From NCBI RefSeq assembly GCF_040938485.1, contig NW_027271421.1, positions 566,567 through 630,566 of the forward strand: a stretch of DNA of 64,000 nt. Direction: 5' to 3'. The stretch is from Diadema antillarum (lineage: Eukaryota). Below are positions 4,992 through 57,346 of the stretch, piece after piece. The translations under genes were made by a program, and so were the position numbers. Position 1 is the first letter of the stretch. Every line of letters begins with the position of its first letter. The notes beneath the pieces were generated by a model. The model did no database searches, was not told the origin of the DNA, and saw only the letters and a list, made by a program, of their open reading frames with translations.

Positions 4992-7900
4992 GTAAGTCTC
5001 CAACTAAGGGATGTGATATGTTTTTAATGTGGATGACTGCATGTTGTGCAAGTACATATTATGTCATCACATAAAATATATATGTAATAGGTACACATAT
5101 ATTCCCACATACACAAATAGATATATTGAGCGGATGATTAGAATTTTTAAAATCTGGGACGGTATCATAAATATGCATTCATATACACATTACGATGACA
5201 TTACTCTTACACCTCTCACTCTAATTTCTCTTGGCATCGTTCTACAATCTTAAGGACTACTGTAGTATTACCTTGACATGTACCCATGGGAGTATTTTCT
5301 TTGACTTCCTTAAACGTTTGCCAGGAGAATCATTTCGTGTCATCCCATTACCATGCCCACCCGCCGCGGCTTTTCCTTTATGCCAGGTGGCATTATTTCC
5401 CTTCCATACATAATTTAACGAAAGATGTTTCTTCTTATCTGGCAATAACCCGGCTGTTGGCATCATGCAAGTGGAATTTACCCACCAGCCTTATCATAAA
5501 TCCCCCTTTTGGGAAGAAGTTTGGATCAGTCTGAACTCACTGCAGAAGCCTTCGTCATTCTTGGACGATCAAATCGTCGATGAATCGTGGTCGTTGTGCA
5601 GAGTGCTTCCGCGATAAATTGACGTCAAATTGAGAAGACGAGGATCGGTATGGTATCCAAGTCATCTATCCCTACCGGAGGAAATGCATCTACAGCACGG
5701 ATTAGGGGCGTGATATCGGCGATGGAGGTTAGATTGAAAATATGAAACAATGACGTCATGCCTCAAAACGAGCAAAGTAAAACGGCCTTACAACATCGTC
5801 ACATAACATGAATAGGGGAAGAGGCAATTTAACATTTACCCTACCTTGTGGTCCCTGCCTAAAGGTTGAGTAGCATCTCATGTCGCATCATTTTCATCAC
5901 TTCAACATAGCATGGCTGGAAGAGAAGGATGTCAATGCAAACGAATAATGCTAAAACTTGTGGTAGCATTTAAAGCCTGTTTTCCTCTTAAAAGTGACGA
6001 CAGAATTTAATCTAGTATTTGTTATTTTTGGAAAATTCTTGATGCCATTTTTCTAGATGATGGAAAGTTACCTTTACCCTTTCCTTTCTACTCTATTGGA
6101 GGGAATGGGTTTCCGCGCTGGTTGCAGACACACATAACAGACTTGTCATATTCTTGCGCACAATAATACGTATATCACAGTGCGCGCCTGACATCAGACA
6201 ATTCAGAAATCTATACCAATTTCAACGATATCACTTCATTTATGTCATTCGCTTTCAATTTAGAAGTCGAAAGTCTGAAAGGCAGTAAAGAAAAAAGTGC
6301 AGACAAAAAAATCATTATATCAGTCTCCATGACGTCATTCAAATTGATTCAATCTCACTCTGCTAACGATTATTGAAGCCAAGATTGCTTCAAACACAGC
6401 ATCATTCGGCAGATTGGTCCCGAGAGAACAGAAGAAAACTTTGATAATCTGTCACATAACCAACTGCAGTTTACCCAACAAATTTCTAAAAAGAATTCGT
6501 TCCTCTTCGTACTTTTTATTCTAAATGATGTCCTGCGGATAAGTAGAGGATATGCGGGAGTATCACTAAGATTAAGGTTGTATCGTCGCCAATGGCATGT
6601 GCCCACTGTCCTATTCTTTAGGTAATCTGGAAGATTGGTTTGTAAGTATTCCACTAGAAGATATAAACATAAAATACGAAATATTTGCAGACAACGAACG
6701 GATGTGCGATGGTTTTAAAGTCCACTGACATGCAAAAAGTGCTAGTAGAAAAAATCCCTTTTATCATTAAGTCTAGCATTTATTCATGCATATGTTAACC
6801 AATAATCAAAACATGTATACGTTTATTTGAATTTTCCAATAAATTTTGAATCTTATTCTGAATTTTTATTTTGAATTTTTGAAATCTTATTCTTCATATA
6901 TCTAGGAATCACCAGTCTGCAGAAGAAGAGTATATAATAATAAAGAAAAGGATGGGAAAACTTTAGGAGGAAACAAATAGAAGAAAAGATATATAGAAAG
7001 AGAAGCGGAAAAACTGGCTAATCTGAGAAATGGAAGATAAACATAGAGAGAGAGGAGAGATGAATGCAAGTTTACGAATGTAAACAAAGCGGAAGATGTA
7101 AGAAAAACTTAGGAGAATGATAGACATATAGACAGGAGGTCCTCTAAGAAGTGAACCCTGTTCTTGCTTTGTCAGCCTAGTGATCGCCACGGGTTTCCAT
7201 TTATGGGACCCTGTTACTATTTTGGACGAGATTTTCGACGGTGTATTCTGAGAGACAAAATGGTAATTGACCCCAATCACTATCAGCCTACGAGTCACCT
7301 TTCCTTCTTTCTTTAGCTTTAAGTACTGCCGGGCGTTCCAGCACATTACCGAGCTAATTTCCTGTGGTATCGGGGCTCTGAATCCCATAAGAGGTGCTAC
7401 AATTACTTTGGCTGCCTATAGCAGACATGACGCCAAGAGGTGTAGCAGCCCAGGCATCGAAATGAAGACCATGATAGGAATGCTAACTCCAAAATGTGAG
7501 CCATCTCTTTGCAGGAGCAGTACACTGTCCTGGCGACACTGAGCTTCTAACTCACACCTTACAGTGGCTAATCGTGTTCATTTTGGCCTCATGGTGGCCA
7601 GTACGACAGACCAGAAATCCGTTCACCACCCACCCGGGAGACGTGCCGTTATTCTGGCATTATTCATGGGACAAATTAAGTACATTAGCTACTTTCTTGA
7701 TAAGTTTGTGACAAACATGTACAAAGCTCGTTAGTTTTTGCAACCTCAGTTAAAAAAAAAAACACACCAAGAAACTCAATTTTTGATGATGACGTGAACA
7801 ATGTTAAAAGCATTGATAGAATCATGACTACACACAGGAGGTTCATTTCATCAGTTCATCATTGACTTTATTTGGAAATAACATGTTTATTATGTCTGAC

Positions 7901-8816: not shown

Positions 8817-9342
8817 GTACGTATTCAACATTTTTTTTTTTGGTTGATGATTTAATTACACCTTTGAATTAAAAACATCAAGAAGAAATAAGCAGAGAAG
8901 CAAGTGGATGAAATTCGCGGAAGGCCAACAGATCACTGAAAATTACACGACAATGTACAACACTTTGTTGTTACCACATCTTGCCGGTGTAAAGTATAAA
9001 GCATCTGCTGGCCTTCCTTTTCACAATCATGCCGTGTTGCCGTGTTTTTGTGTTTATGTCTATGTCTTTATGGGGTTTTTTTTCTGCCCTGTTTGTTCTA
9101 CAGGGTCTTTATTGTTTTGAATTACCCATATTTTCTTTTCCATAAAAGTCGTTTCACCGTTTTCACGTTGATTGCATGAGATGTCCACAGTATACAAGCA
9201 CTGCTTTAGTGGACCCTCATTTTTTTCCTCAGAAAATGGATACTGTAACAAGTTTGATTTGAAACTACGTAAAGATGCTTTAAATTTGTTAATTAAGTCA
9301 AATTTGCATTATACAGTCAACCATTGTGTACTCATATATATA

Positions 9343-9378
<36 letters not shown>

Positions 9379-9487
9379 CATATAAAGACGATGAAGACAA
9401 ACAAGTTGACATAATGCATTAGATTCCAACTTCATTTATTTGTAAACCAAATTTTCGACCCTTGCACGGGTCTTCCTCAGGGTAACA

Positions 9488-9610
9488 GTGATATTTGTAT
9501 TTGAAGCTCAGCACAGAAAAATAATAATAATAACAAAGAAACGACAACCAGGCGCGTTTCTTTGTTATCATTATTATTTTTCTGTGCTGAGCTTCAAATA
9601 CAAATATCAC
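9488..9610. repeat. Near-perfect 56-bp-arm inverted repeat (hairpin) with an ~11-nt loop, in Hdc intron 2.
   Basis: The left arm is gtgatatttgtatttgaagctcagcacagaaaaataataataataacaaagaaacg. The right arm is its reverse complement with one mismatch. This explains the mirrored ORFs on both strands in the track. Confidence 0.9.
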
Positions 9611-34050: not shown

Positions 34051-34724
34051 GGCGCGAAAGGAAGGGCTGCCTCACCAAGCTACTCAACTACCGGAAGAAG
34101 ATGGGTCGTCGCGCAATGTCCGAAGAAGCGGAGGGCTATGGCTACCCTTTCAACGCCTACTACAGCTTCGAAGATACCTCAAGTGGTTTGCCGTCCCCCT
34201 GTGAAGATGACCCGGGCTTCGAAGTCGACGATGAGGTGTTTGGGAGCAACAGTCACATCCAGAATGGCTGTACCAGCAGTGAGGAGGCTCAGGAGGAGGA
34301 GGAGGAGGAGGAGGAGGAGGAGGAGGCAGATGCAGATCACAATGAAGAAAACCATGACGAAGAGGCTAAACTACCCACTGGCCCTGAAACAGACGACACC
34401 GGCGACAATGCCACCAAGGACAACGAGAGAGAAGAAACCAATCCTGAGGTGCAAAACACCGACCAGGACATCGACCACAAGCTGCAGCCGAACGACATGG
34501 AGAATACCAACGCACTTCACACCAAGCTAGAATGCGTGACGGCTAACGGCCAAACCCAGCCTGTTTCCATGGGAACGGAGAAACCCGTCAACGTTGGGGT
34601 GGCCAGTAAAGGTCGTTTTGGTGCGTTGAGTCAAACGAAGGAGAGCACATACAACGGTGTGGTTAACATCTGCCACTATCGCTCCACCAAGGGCTCCGTG
34701 GTGAGCCAAGGGGACGGGGAATAG
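34051..34724 (+). CDS. Acidic low-complexity ORF. The ATG-initiated 207 aa span 34101-34724, and the frame stays open back to an acceptor-like cag at 34048-34050. It is either an alternative 3' coding exon of Hdc or an unrelated orphan ORF. Sequence: MGRRAMSEEAEGYGYPFNAYYSFEDTSS...poly-E...GRFGALSQTKESTYNGVVNICHYRSTKGSVVSQGDGE.
   Basis: A 624-nt ORF is unusual in otherwise ORF-poor AT-rich DNA. An upstream polypyrimidine plus cag sits at 34031-34050. The exon would start in phase 1, which fits the in-frame donor cca g|gtgcgc at 31743/31744 inside the last Hdc exon. No homolog is recognised. Confidence 0.3.
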
Positions 34725-38843: not shown

Positions 38844-39656
38844 GGTGTTACGAAAGGAAATGTAAAGAGAATCAAGGGTATTATACACAAATAAATCAAA
38901 CATTTATGGGAATATCCCTTCTCAATCTAAGACTGCAACCACTGCTGACATCTTGTAAACCAGTTAAACCCACTGACAGTGTGACATATACAGTACACAT
39001 CCTATCCCCACTGAAACACATGGCCTCACTGTTTCTTCCATTTCAAATAGTCAACACCTTTTCTGGCACTGCATTTTGTGATATGGCTGTGACATTTGTG
39101 CAACTCTGAGAAATCACATATTTAGCACAGACCTTGGCACATTAATATTGCTGATTTACAAGAAAGCCCAAATTTAACAATGTTTCTGGAATCACCAATT
39201 TGCCCTAGTTACAGTCGCTCTCTCTTGTTCAAGAAAAAGACATTTTCGAAATGTCACATGGGATGAATGGGTGGACAAAGTTATATAGCGGTCACATCAA
39301 GATTGTGAGATCATCATGTGTATCAAGGCATTCATGTCATTAAAAGAATAATGCAAGTGTCTATAAAATTAAGTGAAGAAAAAATACTAAGGGCTTAAAA
39401 TAGGTGTTCTTATTTCCTCTGAACATTTGTTAAATGTATAGTATATAATGTTTGCCTATGAAGGTGTACAGTGGTTAACAGGATTTGAACATTAAAAGTC
39501 TCCTTGTAAAAAATTCACTATCTAATGATACAGTTCAGCAGTTTCTAAAATGAATGACTCTCTAAAGGAATGTGAAAGGCCATACCATAACATTCAGTAC
39601 CACAACCTACACTGACATAAGTGTTTGACACACTTCTTCCCTACTAGATCATTTTA

Positions 39657-40135
39657 TTTAAATTCATGAAATTCTTCCGTCGAGATGTTTTCATTGCAAC
39701 TGATTGACAAATTGCCCTACATCGACGTAAATAAGCACTGAATTGATCAGTGTTATCAGTGTTTTTTTTATCATGGCTACTACTAAAACACTGATCAATT
39801 CAGTGCTTATTTACGTCGATGTAGGGCAATTTGTCAATCAGTTGCAATGAAAACATCTCGACGGAAGAATTTCATGAATTTAAATAACAAAGCAGTACCC
39901 GCTGCATGCTATAAGGATTAGAACCAACACTTGCTGTCGGGCGAAAGCTCGGTGGTCTAGTGGAGATGACGCCTGTCCGGTGATCAGGAGGTCGGTCGTA
40001 GGTTCGAATCCTGCTCGAGTATGTACGCCCATGTTTTTTTTTTTTTTTTTTTTTATCATGGCTACTACTAAAACACTGATCAATTCAGTGCTTATTTACG
40101 TCGATGTAGGGCAATTTGTCAATCAGTTGCAATAG
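39657..40135. mobile_element. Composite foldback element. A near-perfect ~100-bp inverted repeat (arms about 39657-39762 and 39790-39889) is followed by the tRNA-like segment and T-run. A third direct copy of the right-arm proximal part follows at 40037-40133.
   Basis: The sequence attcatgaaattcttccgtcgagatgttttcattgcaactgattgacaaattgccctacatcgacgtaaataagcactgaattgatcagtgtt and its reverse complement are separated by a short loop. The segment tttttatcatggctactactaaaacactgatcaattcagtgcttatttacgtcgatgtagggcaatttgtcaatcagttgcaat occurs twice in direct orientation, flanking the tRNA-like insert. Confidence 0.7.
39946..40022 (+). pseudogene. tRNA-like sequence (Glu/Asp-like), followed 11 nt later by a T21 run at 40034-40054. 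Likely a pseudo-tRNA or tRNA-derived SINE head rather than a functional tRNA.
   Basis: A canonical T-arm GTAGG-TTCGAAT-CCTGC. A D-arm GGTGGTCTAGTGG as in tRNA-Glu. An anticodon region CGCCTGTCC resembling tRNA-Asp (GTC), but the 3' half of the anticodon stem does not pair. The acceptor stem AGCTCGG/TCGAGTA pairs at 6 of 7 positions with two G-U pairs. The downstream oligo-T is a Pol III terminator-like run. Confidence 0.45.
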
Positions 40136-43100
40136 ATCATTTTAATTTAGCTACATTCAGCAATCCAGTCTGCAATGCATGTCAAGCAAAATGTTTTAAG
40201 CTCTGAAGAAATCCAGGCAATAGTGAAACGAGTCTGCAGCTATAACCTCACTACTTGTATACCAAACCAACAAATAAACAAGTGTTGGGGTAGGGTTTAT
40301 GATAATTGAGAATGACCTCACTACAACAGTAATCTTGTTATAGCCATGCTTGCTTAAAGGCGGCTGTTCTGCTGTAGGATAACGCTGCAAAGGTTGGCAA
40401 CATCTTGTTTAAAAGTAACTCAAAAGTGAGCTGATTATAATACAATTGAATTGTAGCACCACCTTTCCACTTTGAAGACACTTCACTCTTTACACGGTCA
40501 GCAAACAAAGAGTGCATAACAAGAACAAATAGCATGATGAAGCATTTCATTTGAGACTACACAGAGAAGAGAACACTGAATTACTGTAGTTATGCTCAAA
40601 CTGCATTAATGTTAGTAATCAAACTGACTTTCGAGTATCATAAGAGGGGAAACCTTATAAAGCACGCTCAGGATTATATCATTCCAACAGGCAGCAAAGC
40701 TCAGCACTGAATATCAACCATGAGCTGGTGAAAGGACCATCAATCATGCGAGAATTCCCTATCATGATATGACAGGATGAAAACAACACTTCCACCTTAT
40801 TGCAGCATTTCCACACTCGGTGCATTGCAAAGCAGTACTATTGCATCTTGTAATCACCTTGTCTACTCCAAAGCCAAACTACAACAACAGCCACTTTGAT
40901 TCTGCAAGTTTCTCAAGTTCACTAAGTTCAGTGAAATCATTCATGAAAATAAGCTAGAAACAGAAAAAGTTATGATCATAATTGCTCAAAGACATTTTAA
41001 CATAACTACAGCAATTCGACTTCAGCAGGCAGTTGACTTGGATGCCTCCACTTTATCACGCATTCACTATAAAGTCATAAGTACATGGCTCTTCATGGCA
41101 TTGAGATGGCAAAACAACAAATCCATATCCAACCTCATTTCCAGTCACTTGAGTTTGAAGTTTCGCAAACCTACAGCTCTTTTTCTGTTTTCGTTCAACA
41201 CTTCATATCATACCCTAGAAGGACCAACAGTAACAGTAATAAAATGCATGTAAATTGATTTCACTAGACCCTTTATTTTTAGAATAATTTGCATTTAATC
41301 ACGTTTTGCTGTCTCAACATAACCACACTATTGCCATTGATACGGCAAAACAATGTAAGTCTCGATCACTGGCACGCGCATAATGTCCTACAACGTAAAT
41401 ACAAAAGTGTATGTGCACCCTTCTGCAGCCGCACGAGGCGCGCAGCCTATTACTGCGTAAACACGTAGGTCTATGGCAAAACAATATATCGCATGCAGAT
41501 ACGTTGTTTTGCCAAGTCCATGCCCGACGTGTGTTGAGCAGGGGCAAGCGTATCGCTGCTTACATTGTTTTGCCAACAGAATTTGAACAATTCCCACTAG
41601 GAGGGATTGTCACATCTCAGTAACGGGACGGGTTCTGATTTCAAGATCTGGTCAAGAGTTAGATACTCAAATGCTAAAATAAGTTGAAATATGTGACTAC
41701 ATCAGTTTTCATGAATTTTCGACATACGTTGTTTTGCGATCTCAAGGCTGTTCATTTGCCTTTGAACAAAGGTCATCCATCTTGATCACTAACCAAGGAT
41801 TGACCCTATCTGCACACATGCAATATTTGCCATCCATTTATGTCCATAAAACAAAAATCACATATCACTGGACTTACAAATAAACAGTTATTGCCAAAGT
41901 ATTACATCTGTAGCCAAACTTGTGTGATGATCTGCTAGTTATCTATATAGTCAATGCATCTACAGCTCATGTAGTATACCAAACCAAATTCTCAGGCAAT
42001 CTACAGAACTGTTCCTCTTGAATCAAAGAAAAGAGACATGGCACAGAGAGACTGACAGACAAGCCACCCCAAAAACATAATAAATGCCTTCAACACTCTT
42101 GGGGCGGGGACATAAGATAGATGCTTAAAAGTATTTACTCATTGTTTATCTCATATTGGCCCCAATCATCATAAAATCATACATAACACATGAGCAACAA
42201 TGCTATCAAATAGGATTTCTTCCAGATTTTTAAATTTTTTTGGGTTAATCTATTGATGCAAAAATTCTATGAACAGAAAAAGAGAAAAACTCTATAGAAT
42301 ATCTGACACCTTGTCTGTAGCTCATATACAGACTACAACATTTTCTTCATCTATATCAATGAAGAAATGACCTCCTACTGCACTTTTTTTTTTTCGAATG
42401 GCACACACACCTTGGTGATGTCTTCATCAACTGGCATAGATAGCCTGGAAAATATTTGTCAATAAACACATATTACTGCTCCCCCACCCCTATTTTGTGG
42501 CCAGAACCTTTCTGTTGGCCTGAGAAACATTGCTACAATTAAATGGGCTCGCTACCTTTACAACTAGGTCCATTTTGGACGGATAACTAAGAAATGCTGA
42601 AAAAGCTGGGGACGCAAAGAGATAATACATTGTTGGGTAGCATAATAATCTACTACATTGGCAATCGGCAGAGTACAGGTATATTTGGAGGTTGAAATTA
42701 CAATGATTTCCTTTCAATGCTTGTGTAATCTGTAAAGAACAATACAGAAGAAATATGTGTTACCAGTACTCAAAAACTTTGCCTGGAACAATTACATGTT
42801 TAAGCTTTGAATATTCGAAAGTCATGTATTAGAACTTTAATACCAACCTGTGTCTTGTAAAAGAGCAAGAGTTCGATAAAGATTGTCCAAACGTGAGAGA
42901 CGTAACAAAAACAAAAAGACACTCAGTAGTAAGTGTAGAATTCCTGATATTCTCATTTGTCTCACAAATTTTGCTGCAAAACATGAAGAGTGAATATGCA
43001 AAAACTGCCAGCTCTAGTACAAAAAGTCTCCACATTAACAGCTGAGCAGCACTCCTATCAAATTCATCAAATTATCCCTCTTTTCTCTTTGTTAATGCCC

Positions 43101-44246: not shown

Positions 44247-44307
<61 letters not shown>

Positions 44308-44310
<3 letters not shown>

Positions 44311-44990
44311 GACCGTGCACCTCAAAACGAACATAAAGTCGCACACACTGATTTTGCGTGAGGACTGAAAATAAGTGAAATGGGTCAATCTAGCCGAACT
44401 TGACTTTTTCATATTTTCTGAAAGAGCGGGTCTTCTTTTACATAATGTTAAAATTTGGTGTCATAAAACGGGCAGGAAAGTGTGTTTTTTAGCAGTTTAT
44501 CTCAAACATTTTTGGTAGAATAGTGTGACTAGGTGTGTCTTTAGAATCCCTTTTTCATTTCTGAAAAACCTTGTCCACACTCTTCACTTTCAACTCTAAT
44601 AACTTTTGAAAGGATAGTGCTACTGCTTTGAAAGTTGGCATTAATTATTGACAGAATGTGTTAATGAGACATGCTCAATTTCAGTTTAATCTAGTAATCC
44701 CTTCATTGTTGTTACTCTGGTGGTTTACTTCCTGTTTTTTGTCCCATTCATCGCACAGCCAGCACGGTTTGGTAAAGCTTAAGCGCTTGAATAGACACTG
44801 TACTTCAGAGCCTCTTTTCTCAGTTCACGCTTTTCCTGAGTTTGTGCTTTCTTTCCAGTATTTAGATAGGTTAGGAGATTCCATTTGATTTGGGTTATAC
44901 ATCATTTTAAAGCTTGAAGTCTGCTCTTTCAGAATATGGTCTTAACTAAAAATTCATGTCTGGCGACTTTTTGTTTGTTTTGAGGTGCAG

Positions 44991-44997
<7 letters not shown>
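44308..44997 (+). mobile_element. MITE family A, copy 1 (~690 bp). A non-autonomous TIR element inserted in a (TA)n microsatellite, within the last PDK intron.
   Basis: About 26-bp TIRs, tgtgaccgtgcacctcaaaacgaaca and tgtttgttttgaggtgcagagtcaca. About 90% identical throughout to the copy at 55872-56569. TA-rich flanks. The internal ORFs are non-coding artefacts. Confidence 0.75.
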
Positions 44998-45043
<46 letters not shown>

Positions 45044-46791
45044 TATGTTGGTGTGTCCCTGGTTTGGCCATTCATGTGCTCTTGCTTAGGACAACTGATG
45101 GTGTACACACCTGTTTTGGATTTAACAAAGACTCACTATGGACAATCTTGAAGGCTGGAAAAGCACAAAGGCTAATGATCATGTAGACATTGGAATGGGT
45201 TGTTAATGTTATAAATTCACAAGGCTAGGCATCAGCACATACACTGTACCTAATTCCCTAGGCTTTATTCAATATGTATCCTTTATGTTCACCATTAGGT
45301 GCTTAGGAACAAAATACATACAAAACTTAACGACAGATCAGTCAAAGCTTAGAACTTTTCAAATATGTGACCACCCAGCTCAAAATTCGCAGAAAGTAAA
45401 CCAAAATTAATTTCTACTCTTCTAGTACATTGTTTTAAAGATTGAGCTCTAAGATTTAAAATGATATACATGTATATCTTTTTTAAAGTGGATCATCCTA
45501 ACTAACAAATTCCCCCCCCCCCCCAAAAAAAAAAAAAAAAAAGTGATCAAAATATAATAGAGTTAGGAGGTGCAATTTCACAGAAGCGGGGGAAAAAAGA
45601 TTTAAAGATTAGGGTCACTCAGGTGTGCTGTGCAGAAGTATCAATGAAAACATGTTCTATTTCACAGTGAAAGCAATTCCTGTATGAAAAGAAAGAAGTA
45701 TATATATGGTATGGACAAGAAAAACTGCTAATATCTTGATGTCAGTTTTACTTTAAGTCACCAAATTTTGACAGTAGGCAGAGAAAAGATCACTCTCCCA
45801 GATAAAGACAAACTTACAAAATCTGCATCAGTCACCCCAAGTGACATATTTTGGTCCATTACAGAGAATCCTTAACATAATTTTTGTGGTTTCGAGCTGG
45901 ATGGTCACATATGCTCATTCTACTGCACATGACTTGATGTGGTTTCTGGTCTTCACATGATTCTATTCATTTGTAATACTTCTCTCTCATTCATGGAGGA
46001 AGTCTTGAGGTAATTTACAGAAGCTGACATCGCACACAAGTACATGAAACAAATAGTTCAATTCATCATGTCGCTTTACAAGGGTTTATACATCGAGTTG
46101 GCAATCATGCTAAAGCGGACTAAGCATTTCATTTATAAAAGCCTACAATACAAACCATTCACCATTTTTTTCCTCTTCTATTATCTCCTAATCAAATGAT
46201 ATTAACAGCAAAATGCTTCCCTCTTTAAAACATATACCACTCACTTTGCCAAGAGTAATGACATGGCACCATTTCAATGAACTTTGCTTATTCATCAATT
46301 CACAAACAAGAGTATCTTTGTACAAACTGTGATATTTCCTCAAATGTTCACATTTTACCATTTCCACAATCGTTCAGCCAAGCGTGAAAAAGTAAGATTT
46401 TTCAAGCTACTAAATATTTCATGTTCACAGTAGATTGTTGCACAAAGTCTGGCTCCTTAAGTTCTGATCCCCATTGCAGCAGCTTTTTTTTTTTTTTTAA
46501 ACCTAAGTAATTACAAAAACATCCTCTTTTCAGAATTCACATGAGTCATGCAAATCATACCAGAAACTTGTAATATCCTAGAGCTGACAAGATGTTCAAT
46601 ATCAACGTCATACGGTAGCAGAATTAAATTTGTATAAGTAACACCATACTAGTCAACATAGGCAAACGTGTAATCACATATCACCGGAGGTAGTTATTGA
46701 ACCCTTCCTAAATCCACAATAAGAACACTTGGTGAAGGGCGAGAGCTGGCCTCGAAGAATTACTATGAAAATCATACAGCTGCATCCTTAC

Positions 46792-52133: not shown

Positions 52134-53508
52134 CTGGGTGAAAAGAACCAACAATCATCGTATTTGACTCATGACATTTGAACTTGGTACTTGATGTGAC
52201 AGGACAGATTTCACTACAGTCATGGCAAGTTCATAGCTGCATCTCCATGAGTTTATTTTTTGAGATATGAAAAATGTCAGTGTAAACTTACAAATCTATC
52301 CTCAGCATTATCAGGAACTGATTTGCGGAAGAGAATCCGCGGGGGTGAATCCGTCCCCCCTCGATGTTTCGCGCTATAATTCTGTAACGCGAGAAGACCT
52401 CGTCATGAGGCTTCTTGACTTTCTTTGTTCAAGTCTCACGCAACTTTTGAGACCAAATTTGCAACGTCCGCGCATACTTTTACAAAGCCATGCCCATTTT
52501 TTTATTTTGGCATGTCGCCCTAAAGCGGGCACAATTTTGTGATTTTGCGTACATTTCCTATGGAAAACAGTGCTCTGTCATCAAAGTCATTAAAATTTTT
52601 ACAATTGATCACTTTCATTGATTAATCTTATGCTAATTATCGTAGAAAAGTGGTCACTGACAATTTCCAATAAAAAACAAAGAAAAAACAAAGGTTGAAA
52701 AACACAGAAATACATAAGAAATTCTGAAAACAATAAAATTGATAAGAGTTGAAATGACTTTTGGAAGTTTTTGTGATGTACAATTGTTGAATATGCCAAA
52801 ACAGATTTACAAACCACAAAAGTAGGCTCTCAATGCTTTTAATTGGGCTAAAATATGATCTTGAGCTTAATTTACATAATTAATTAACTAAAATTAAAAA
52901 CTGATTGTTTCAAAAAATATTATGGCACAATCTTGTAGATTATGACATGGGGGTCACGCATGCCAAATTTCGTCACGATTGCACCTCTGATGGCCGAGAT
53001 CTCAGGGGAAAGGGCAGAATCCACCCCCCTCCGGTCTTAGCATAGCCAAAAAAGCCCGGCCTGATTAGGGTTAAACAATTTTTTCTTTATTCTCTGAATG
53101 TATCAACACTGAGGACATCAGAGAGACAGTAGCATGACAATCACAGTGAAGCTAAGTCGATGTCATCTGACTATTACACACTGACACTGAGAATGCTATA
53201 TACCGTAGAAAGCTCTTCTCTTCATCCTAACCATGAATGGTTTCTTTTTGAGACTTTTATTTTGTGAATGAGTAGAACAGTGCCTGCATATCACATAATG
53301 ATTTTTTGATACTGGAGGGAAAAGCAGCAATATTGTTCATATGTCAAATGGTATAAAAAGGACCTAAATATACTGATCCGTTGATTCATCTTAACTTCTC
53401 TAATCACAATTATCCAGTGAGTTGTCTACACATGATAGAAAAGGGAACTAGAAGCACAAAAATAAAAGGGCAATTCATACATTAGGGGCAAAACGTGTTG
53501 AGCATTAC

Positions 53509-55732: not shown

Positions 55733-55871
55733 CTGTAGAGAATAAACAAGAAATCAAGGTGAAAATAACAGATTTCTATTACAGGTATATTGATTTGTTC
55801 ACGAGAGATGTTTAAATATACTTTTTAGGAAGACATATTTAAAGGACATTGATAGTATAAGTACATGTATA

Positions 55872-56569
55872 TGTGACCGTGCATCACAAAACGAACAAAA
55901 AGTCGCACACACTGATTTTGTGTGAGGACTGAAAATAGGTGAAATGGGTCAACCTAGCTGATCTTGACTTTTTCATATTTTCTGAAAGAGCACGTCTTCT
56001 TCTACATTATGCTAAAATTTGGGATCATAAAACGGGCAGGAAAGTGTGTTTTTTCAGCAGTTTATCTCGAACAGTTTTTTTGTAGAATAGTGTGATAAGG
56101 TGTGTCTTTAGAGTCTTTTTTTTCATTTCTCAAAAACCTTGTACACACTCTCCCTTTTCAACTCAAATAACTTTTGAAAGGATGATGCTAAGTACTGCTT
56201 TGAAAGTTGGCATTAATCATGGTCTGAATGTGTTAATAGAGCATTTTCAATTTCGGCTTAATCTGATAATCTCTTCATTGTTGTTACTCCAGTGGTTTAC
56301 ATCCTATTTTTTGTCCCATTTATCAGACAGCCAGCACGGCTTGGTAAAGATTGAGCGATTGAATAGACCCTGTACTTCAGAGCCTTTTTTCTCAGTTCAC
56401 ACTTTTCCCCGAGTGTGTGCTTCCTTCCAATATATAGATAGGTTAGGAGAGTCCATTTGATTTGAGTTATACATCATTTTAAAGCTTGAAGTCTGCTCTT
56501 TTAGAATATGCTCTTAACTAAAATTTCATGTCTGGCGAGTTTGTGTTCGTTTTGTGATGCAGGGTCACA
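55872..56569 (+). mobile_element. MITE family A, copy 2 (~698 bp), in PDK intron E3/E4.
   Basis: Collinear with 44308-44997 (tgtgaccgtgca...gcagggtcaca), with the same TIRs and a TA flank. Confidence 0.75.
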
Positions 56570-57346
56570 TATGTGTTTATATTTCAGTCATAACTCAACC
56601 AAAGCATGAACTGCATGTGTATCTTTAAACAATTGAAGTAGCGTGCTTTAACATGTGAATTGTGAATCAAGAGGTGCAATGTAAAGTATAAAGTTCAACA
56701 ATGCTATAAATATCTTTATCTGACCTGGCCTTTGGTGTAGGTGTTCAATATACAAATATGTAAATCAATAATTCTCATTAAAAAATAATTTGAACTTGCT
56801 TGTCATGTGTACAGACAAGCACAGCTGAGAGTAAAGGACTTGCTAAATAACACAAGTAAATAGTATGTTGTCAACACGTGATGTTGGTTGGTTCTCATGG
56901 ATAAGACATTTCTCTCTATTTGCTGAAATGCAACAATTCATATCTGGTGCTTTCACTTCAATCACAAACAGTTGAATTGATTATGATTTGTAACATTACC
57001 AGTGAAATACCTGGACATGGATGCATTTTAATAATGAATGTGTTTATTCAACAAGGATGATTGACAGAACTACAGTATGTGAGGCATTGACTTACAGTTT
57101 GGCCATTTTACTCAGAGTTAACCCATTGGAATGGTAACAATTATGCCATCATTGGACGTATATGTTGCATACCATTCAAAGCATTTAATATTATCAGTAA
57201 GCTACACATTTGTATTGATGACTTTCAAATGCATGTAGAAAACAGAGCTGTATTACAATAAGTTAAACATGCTCATACTATAACCTTTTACCACATGAAA
57301 GCACCCATAACACATGAGTTGCAAATTTTCCCATTTTCTCCATTAC

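Follow-up and report, generated by a model that had tools for sequence, protein, structure and literature searches.

The 476-bp block at positions 39657–40132 is best explained as one young, lineage-specific retroelement insertion made wholly from one repeat family. It lies within a 64-kb window, by which we mean the whole stretch of DNA analysed (64,000 nucleotides), and carries a perfect hairpin, a tRNA-like unit and a long T run. The hairpin is the element's own module, here called b, copied in both orientations, and no separate foldback element or MITE is involved.

The insertion block sits between the facing 3′ ends of two genes. Exons of Hdc (histidine decarboxylase) run on the + strand from 4818 to ~31700, with the final exon ending at 34724, and those of PDK (pyruvate dehydrogenase kinase) run on the − strand from 59300 down to 44076; the Hdc stop is ~4.9 kb and the PDK stop 3.9 kb from the block. 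A spliced PDK query shared 89% identity with the Diadema setosum protein and 80% with the Lytechinus and Strongylocentrotus proteins. PDK and Hdc are likewise convergent at the D. setosum locus (L002; GCA_964275005.2, OZ188199.1), with which the window aligned over nearly its full length at 80–95% identity, mostly 84–89%. Judged from sequence, the window species is a diadematid related to D. setosum yet distinct from it. A second foldback is present within the window at 9488–9610.

Alignment to D. setosum revealed both the borders of the insertion and its empty site. The flanks at 38878–39654 and 40134–41096 aligned at 89% identity with L002 44507–43740 and 43748–42788, respectively. A 12-bp direct repeat, TAGATCATTTTA, which extends to 15 nt with one mismatch, stands on both sides of the whole block, and the corresponding D. 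setosum site reads ccctac-CAGATCATTTCA-gtttagc, with the target present once and no insert. The insertion at 39657–40132 has a short target-site duplication and a matching empty site in D. setosum, in agreement with the proposal in the original prediction that a mobile element lies here. The absence of the block from the orthologous D. setosum site indicates a young insertion that occurred in the lineage of the window after the two species split. Copies of module b within the block are identical to one another (101/101 and 79/79 nt), whereas neutral divergence between the species is 11–13%, indicating that the event was recent and much younger than the species split. The features of the block and its borders, with the evidence for each, are as follows.

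39645–39656, no strand: left target-site duplication, TAGATCATTTTA; direct repeat with a single target copy in D. setosum.
39654–39754, − strand: inverted 5′-truncated b (b[118→18]), the left hairpin arm, sharing its outer 3 nt with the target-site duplication; matches the reverse complement of b[18–118] exactly.
39654–39692, − strand: 39-nt 'tail', b[80–118], at the outer end of the inverted copy; defined by coordinates and missing from the right-hand copy.
39746–39763, + strand: inversion junction, ATCAGTGTT twice (a 9-nt tandem duplication), beside the palindrome CACTGA-n5-TCAGTG of b; read from the sequence.
39762–39769, + strand: T8 tract, a truncated T tract bordering the first direct b copy on its 5′ side; read from the sequence.
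39770–39887, + strand: complete module b, 118 nt, with the right hairpin arm at 39787–39887 and the tail at 39849–39887; homologous to D. setosum L002 14898–15010 (nhmmer E = 4e-10).
39888–39937, + strand: u, a unique 50-nt leader between b and the tRNA-like unit; single copy in the window.
39938–40033, + strand: h, the pseudo-tRNA unit (tRNA-like part 39946–40022, 11-nt trailer 40023–40033); Rfam tRNA, ARAGORN and fold.
40034–40054, + strand: T21 tract, Pol III terminator-like, between the pseudo-tRNA and b; read from the sequence.
40055–40133, + strand: second direct b copy, b[1–79], without the tail, its last T shared with the target-site duplication; exact match to b[1–79].
40133–40144, no strand: right target-site duplication, TAGATCATTTTA; direct repeat.

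Read along the + strand, the block consists of inverted b[118→18], T8 and full b, leader u, pseudo-tRNA h, T21 and b[1–79]. All three repeat copies represent the single 118-nt module b: one is inverted and 5′-truncated, and of the two direct copies one is complete and the other lacks the last 39 nt. The inverted and the complete copy form the hairpin, with arms at 39654–39754 and 39787–39887 that are 101 nt long, 100% complementary and separated by a 32-nt loop, matching the perfect hairpin with ~100-bp arms that had been described; DNA folding of the block gave −151.8 kcal/mol (z = −23 versus shuffles). The direct repeat (39762–39848 and 40047–40133) is 87 nt long, 100% identical, and consists of T8 plus 79 nt of the arm. 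It does flank the tRNA-like insert, as the original prediction had it, at this length instead of ~95 bp. The period of the direct repeat is 285 bp, amounting to 1.3 units with arbitrary phase at both ends. The outer block ends fall at b[115–118] and b[79], 39 nt apart, and share microhomology of 3 nt and 1 nt, respectively, with the target. The right end, ...CAGTTGCAA|TAGATC, is internal to b, the sense part of the block stopping at b[79], and the left end, ...TTTAAATAA, is in inverted orientation. The two ends of the block, TTTAAATTC... and ...AGTTGCAA, do not form terminal inverted repeats, and no poly(A), A-rich or simple-repeat tail abuts either target-site duplication.

The tRNA-like unit (39946–40022, + strand) scored 35.6 bits against the Rfam tRNA family, for which the gathering score is 29, and was the sole tRNA match in the whole window; ARAGORN called it an odd 79-nt 'tRNA-Thr(GGT)' at 39945–40023. 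The A box (TGGTCTAGTGG, 39953–39963) is nearly perfect, and the B box (GGTTCGAATCC, 40001–40011) and the T arm are perfect, as expected from the canonical T arm noted earlier. In the Rfam alignment the anticodon stem comprises 4 bp plus a U–U mismatch and position 33 is C, not U, confirming a degraded anticodon stem; the D stem contains one mismatch, also U–U, and the variable region is ~10 nt. The anticodon region had been called Asp-like, and 'Thr-like' fits the anticodon arm at least as well. On its sequence, the unit is a pseudo-tRNA with a recognisable but damaged cloverleaf and no working gene, which upholds the view of a Pol III-type pseudo-tRNA with a T run over that of a bona fide, high-scoring tRNA gene. 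We regard a functional Thr-GGT tRNA gene as extremely improbable. The Rfam score exceeds the gathering threshold, ARAGORN makes a call, the A and B boxes are intact and a terminator is present, but the score is merely 35.6 bits, and genuine eukaryotic tRNAs usually reach ~55–80 bits. C33, the U–U pair closing the anticodon stem, the D-stem mismatch and the ~10-nt variable region further argue against it, as does the position of the unit inside a mobile insertion that is missing from the sister species.

The predicted T21 run is present at 40034–40054 and starts 11 nt past the 3′ end of the tRNA-like unit. On its other side, the unit does not follow the hairpin immediately, as had been stated, but is spaced 57–58 nt from it. 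As both promoter boxes (A and B) lie between the hairpin upstream and T21 downstream, a Pol III RNA would be ~100 nt long and would exclude the hairpin, contrary to the suggestion that Pol III could make a long hairpin RNA here. If transcribed in place by Pol III, the pseudo-tRNA would be predicted to give a tRNA-like RNA of ~100 nt ending at T21, an estimate that takes the start as ~10 nt upstream of the A box and the stop as T21. A hairpin RNA would need read-through from Hdc or PDK, which converge on this spacer, a scenario that we offer as speculation.

The original prediction expected copies elsewhere, and one related copy was found in D. setosum. No further copies of any part of the block were found in the 64-kb window. 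The D. setosum copy lies in a PDK intron (L002 14837–15037) and is an old, diverged relative with 69% identity over 212 columns. A B-box-like sequence comes first, followed by AGTATGTAtcCCaATG, then T8AT6ATT and finally a segment resembling b up to position 118. Its match to b was strong (nhmmer E = 4e-10); for the 3′ part of h, the observed score was reached by 6/2000 shuffles, and for leader u shuffling gave p ~0.04, such that homology of u and the 5′ half of h is not established. The D. setosum relative has no hairpin and no inverted or tandem partner, and it is solitary in the 50-kb locus. The shared order of B box, T tract and b marks this arrangement as a feature of the family and the hairpin as a feature of this single insertion. 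Beyond Diadema, nhmmer found no relatives at the Lytechinus PDK locus, and the Lytechinus and Strongylocentrotus loci yielded no Rfam match at the gathering threshold and no tRNA by ARAGORN. Exact-pattern scans with the pseudo-tRNA and the b core returned nothing in viral contigs or genome contigs, and a single 22-nt chance match in metagenome contigs that could not be extended. The element contains no long ORF; a 67-aa ORF that crosses it gave low-complexity matches only when searched against 1.8 billion representatives, and exact-protein look-ups with this ORF and a neighbouring ORF gave no match. No reverse transcriptase (RT) or GIY-YIG ORF was present in the element, the window or the D. 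setosum locus, and neither the window nor the loci gave a match in a crude tblastn search with a human L1 reverse transcriptase.

We consider it about an even call, from our analysis of the layout, that the block is a non-autonomous insertion of Penelope-like element (PLE) type carrying a tRNA-like passenger. PLE insertions have a published signature comprising a partial tandem ('pseudo-LTR', pLTR), an adjacent head-to-head inverted 5′-truncated copy and a 30–40-bp tail at one end (PMC8557442). A layout in which captured sequence is surrounded by two direct pLTRs and one inverted pLTR has also been described, with 8–10-bp target-site duplications, palindromes where the inverted copy joins, and a tail of 31 bp carried by one inverted pLTR (PMC3846280). 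Each of these structural elements has a counterpart in the block. T8 + b[1–118] (39762–39887) and T21 + b[1–79] (40034–40133), which are identical to each other, flank the cargo as a partial tandem. A head-to-head inverted copy is present at the 5′ side (39654–39754), with its 3′ end outward and its truncated end toward the direct copy. The internal copy and the left outer end both carry the 39 nt of b[80–118], which the right outer end lacks, making this a one-sided tail. Because this layout matches the published signature, a PLE-type reading is favoured. Altogether, four structural characteristics of PLE-type insertions were found and one, the hammerhead ribozyme, was not: no Rfam hammerhead family matched at E ≤ 1 on either strand of 39500–40300, and no CUGANGA...GAAA core occurs inside the block. 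Canonical EN+ PLE pseudo-LTRs and animal retrozymes usually have a hammerhead ribozyme, and Chlamys is without one. The Naiad clade likewise lacks the ribozyme (PMC8557442).

The mechanism that we propose draws on the biochemistry of purified PLE protein, which nicks and extends both target strands; its reverse transcription begins at two positions within a multi-copy RNA, and the stretch between these positions is the tail (PMC11167929). A PLE-type reverse transcriptase/endonuclease would nick the two strands of an AT-rich target with a 12-nt stagger, and a sense RNA comprising several units of the family would template the extension of both target 3′ ends. With internal starts of reverse transcription at b[79] and b[118], the 39-nt tail would result, and the two cDNAs would be joined head to head at the small palindrome to yield the 101-bp hairpin. 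Module b would take the role of the pLTR, with u, h and T21 as cargo; the tRNA-like unit would be a passenger or internal module and not the driver of the mobilised RNA, and the element would be non-autonomous. The insertion itself, its target-site duplication, the modular build, the family-wide order of B box, T tract and b, and the pseudo-tRNA status are shown by the sequence; the machinery of PLE type, the template RNA and the order of events are the parts of this scheme that we infer. The strand relationships at the two ends bear on the template. At the left nick the 3′ end of the + strand (...CATTTTA) runs into the antisense of b, and at the right nick the 3′ end of the − strand (...GATCTA) runs into the antisense of b, T21, h and u. 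As both target 3′ ends continue as antisense, the template RNA would have been in the b/h sense, the only orientation that fits, and the presence of U21 in such a template indicates that it was no Pol III product started at the pseudo-tRNA. Outside the T tract, TTTT does not occur on the sense strand of u, h and b and occurs twice on the antisense strand, giving weak support to a sense template.

Compared with known systems, the block shares with insertions of PLEs (Penelope/Poseidon, Neptune and Naiad) and of their non-autonomous derivatives (sequences captured between pLTRs in Adineta vaga, Chlamydomonas MRC1 and animal non-LTR retrozymes) the partial tandem, the inverted 5′-truncated copy and the tail at one end (39 nt in the block), as well as the short target-site duplication, the palindrome at the inverted junction and the unrelated cargo enclosed by two direct repeats and one inverted repeat. 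It differs in having no RT/GIY-YIG ORF and no hammerhead ribozyme, in a repeated module of just ~80–118 nt, and in the nature of the cargo, which combines a tRNA-like Pol III unit and a long T tract. We know of no published PLE-dependent element or derivative that has a tRNA-like Pol III module and a long T tract. Several observations weigh against the PLE-type reading: the RT/GIY-YIG ORF is missing from the element, the window and the D. setosum locus, the hammerhead ribozyme is absent from the block, and a 12-bp target-site duplication at TTTTA/A would also fit an L1-type endonuclease. The reading also draws on one insertion and one old copy, and it assigns no role to the long internal T tract. 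More tentatively, the family may be a SINE-like non-autonomous partner of PLEs that has no hammerhead, carries an internal tRNA-like Pol III promoter and terminator, and was very recently active in Diadema.

The main rival to the PLE-type reading is a LINE-mobilised, tRNA-derived SINE consisting of head h, a T-rich linker and body b, which we judge unlikely, if less so than the other alternatives. Target-primed reverse transcription with twin or dual priming and an end-to-end template switch would give the inverted 5′ segment and the head-to-tail dimer. Twin and dual priming are documented to yield inverted, truncated inserts within target-site duplications (PMC2837659), and tRNA(Thr)-like heads are known in the sea urchin elements SINE2-1/2_SP of the MetaSINE group (PMC4824008). 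Consistent with such an origin are the A and B boxes of the tRNA-like head, the order of head, T tract and body in common with the D. setosum copy, and the 12-bp target-site duplication, which is of the variable-length type and lies at a TTTTA/A site similar to the consensus of the L1 endonuclease. By description, tRNA-derived SINEs (sea urchin SINE2-n_SP and MetaSINEs) resemble the block in combining a pseudo-tRNA that has A and B boxes with a non-tRNA body, in being short and dispersed, in having a target-site duplication and in the Thr-like anticodon arm, MetaSINE heads being tRNA-Thr-like. However, neither target-site duplication adjoins a tail of poly(A) or simple repeats, the block's right end falls inside b, and Pol III would be stopped by the T8–T21 between head and body without reaching the latter. 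Such an origin would also require twin priming, a template jump and the 39-nt end offset as three separate accidents, and no LINE with a matching 3′ end was seen in ~115 kb. We also set the block against the SINE criteria of SINEBase, which include at least 100 dispersed copies per genome (PMC3531059). Here, the 64-kb window and the 50-kb D. setosum locus each yielded one copy. An A/B-box tRNA-like unit is present as a candidate 5′-terminal head, although in the block it is internal, after u and b; T21 (and T8) separates head from body, where the D. setosum copy has T8AT6ATT, in place of an uninterrupted Pol III unit; and the block has no 3′ tail of poly(A), A-rich or simple-repeat sequence. 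A canonical tRNA-derived SINE is therefore doubtful. The block resembles L1 twin/dual-priming inversions and template-switch chimeric retrocopies in that both target 3′ ends prime cDNA, and in the inverted 5′ segment within one target-site duplication, the junction microhomology and the T-rich target. Unlike these, it has no poly(A) at either end, including beside the 3′ target-site duplication, its sense part ends at b[79], it contains an extra head-to-tail tandem unit, and its priming sites are internal and 39 nt apart.

The remaining explanations are less probable than the SINE. An origin at the DNA level, improbable in our view, would make the block an 'orphon' of a tandem tRNA-like gene array with a 285-bp unit (pseudo-tRNA, terminator and spacer), or a patch templated during double-strand-break repair through microhomology-mediated template switching, with fold-back inversion. 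The 285-bp period with 1.3 units and arbitrary phase at both ends would suit this origin, as would the 1–9 nt of microhomology or duplication at the junctions and the likeness of pseudo-tRNA, 11-nt trailer and T run to a complete Pol III gene with a spacer. Nevertheless, a clean target-site duplication (12 bp here) and a precise empty site are typical of endonuclease-initiated retro-insertion, the D. setosum copy is solitary and not in an array, and no donor array was found in the 64-kb window. The original prediction's own interpretation, a SINE or captured tRNA inserted into or mobilised with a foldback or MITE, retains its co-mobilisation component and loses the independent foldback/MITE, the arms being module b, which recurs past T21. 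A foldback transposon or MITE at 39654–39887 that captured, or was struck by, a tRNA-derived SINE is very improbable and largely refuted. Sea urchins have foldback (TU) elements; the arms are a perfect 101 nt with TA/TTA beside each arm end, and the window contains the further foldback noted above. The long, perfect, hairpin-forming inverted repeat in non-coding DNA is indeed what the block has in common with foldback transposons (sea urchin TU and Drosophila FB) and MITEs. Against this, the arm sequence occurs again in direct orientation past T21 at 100% identity and is linked to a tRNA-like unit in the D. setosum copy, which is independent and has no hairpin. The inverted repeat is not terminal and its arms lack subrepeats; target-site duplication and empty site enclose all 476 bp, an asymmetric composite whose ends are not inverted repeats, and not the hairpin. 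The block thus has neither the terminal inverted repeats nor the superfamily-typical fixed duplication length of such elements, and we know of no DNA transposon with a 12-bp target-site duplication. Only slightly less improbable is that the insertion is real but simpler, and that its palindrome arose as a fold-back chimera in the reads or the assembly. The arms are 100% identical, exact-protein look-ups of two ORFs found no independent assembly of the species, and such structures trouble assemblies according to the PLE literature (PMC8557442). But the left target-site duplication directly abuts the inverted copy, so dropping that copy would destroy the duplication, and the junction has a specific 9-nt duplication and an asymmetric 32-nt loop of genuine element sequence. 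Other candidates were rejected outright. A poly(A)-tailed minus-strand element, with the T runs as inverted A tails, would have the inverted segment on the wrong side and has no A tail at a target-site duplication; a Helitron is ruled out by the target-site duplication, and DIRS by the target-site duplication together with the absence of an internal complementary region. As for a miRNA gene, all Rfam miRNA matches were far below their gathering scores and merely reflect the perfect hairpin.

The block belongs to an uncharacterised small retroelement family whose structure is explicable by known insertion mechanisms, and it is no new kind of system. As a dated pair of filled and empty sites in sister species, it illustrates that a perfect long hairpin can come from a one-step retroelement insertion, with no need for a foldback transposon. 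For annotation, it carries a caution: the weak tRNA call and the miRNA-like hairpin matches here stem from a transposon and not from genes. If the Penelope-type reading is true, tRNA-like Pol III units would be an undescribed class of passenger for PLEs, whose non-autonomous derivatives are a poorly catalogued group, and in this respect the locus is a modest lead on tRNA-like passengers of Penelope-type elements. If the family is a SINE-like partner of PLEs, each insertion would scatter a TFIIIC-binding Pol III unit and a perfect 100-bp hairpin, which would be able to give double-stranded RNA on read-through from convergent genes. These data also flag a recently active element in Diadema genomes.

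A search of public collections with a 22-nt core of module b, the 118-nt repeat of the studied insertion, returned a single match, at positions 6709–6730 of a metagenome contig (L001; Ga0209227_1001679). Similarity is confined to the 22-mer itself and does not extend on either side; the match is due to chance. Several microsatellites occur in the window. The (AT)n tract at 9334–9384 was confirmed with Tandem Repeats Finder, and IYIY-type ORF translations are the sole basis for inferring the other three, at ~13.9 kb, ~26.3–26.6 kb and ~44.2 kb. Some Penelope-like clades are reported to favour simple AT-rich repeats as targets.

A second foldback of the window lies in an Hdc intron, where 56-nt arms (9488–9543 and 9555–9610; 98% complementarity) flank an 11-nt loop. 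It adjoins a hammerhead-core-like string on the reverse strand (9453–9480), CTGAGGA-AGACCC-GTGCAA-GGGTC-GAAA, in which helix II is perfect. At a threshold of E ≤ 1, this string matched none of the Rfam hammerhead families. Across the window, the bare core pattern occurs 10 times versus 5.3 expected, which is no enrichment. An acidic, low-complexity ORF of 207 aa (34101–34724, forward strand) has an end that coincides exactly with that of the Hdc gene model in D. setosum, and probably represents the species-specific C-terminal exon of Hdc.

The corresponding D. setosum locus (L002) carries, at 44510–45989, a ~1.5-kb repeat with terminal inverted repeats of ~50 nt (82%), ~0.8 kb from the site of the studied 476-bp insertion. 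Insertion of this repeat here is specific to D. setosum; window positions 38872–38878 lack it. Partial copies are present in the window:

44290–45045, partial copy, in or near a PDK intron
52341–53075, partial copy, in or near a PDK intron
55868–56583, partial copy, in or near a PDK intron

One of the three shares 95% identity with the D. setosum repeat, compared with an interspecies background of mostly 84–89%, and this suggests that the repeat has been recently active in both species.
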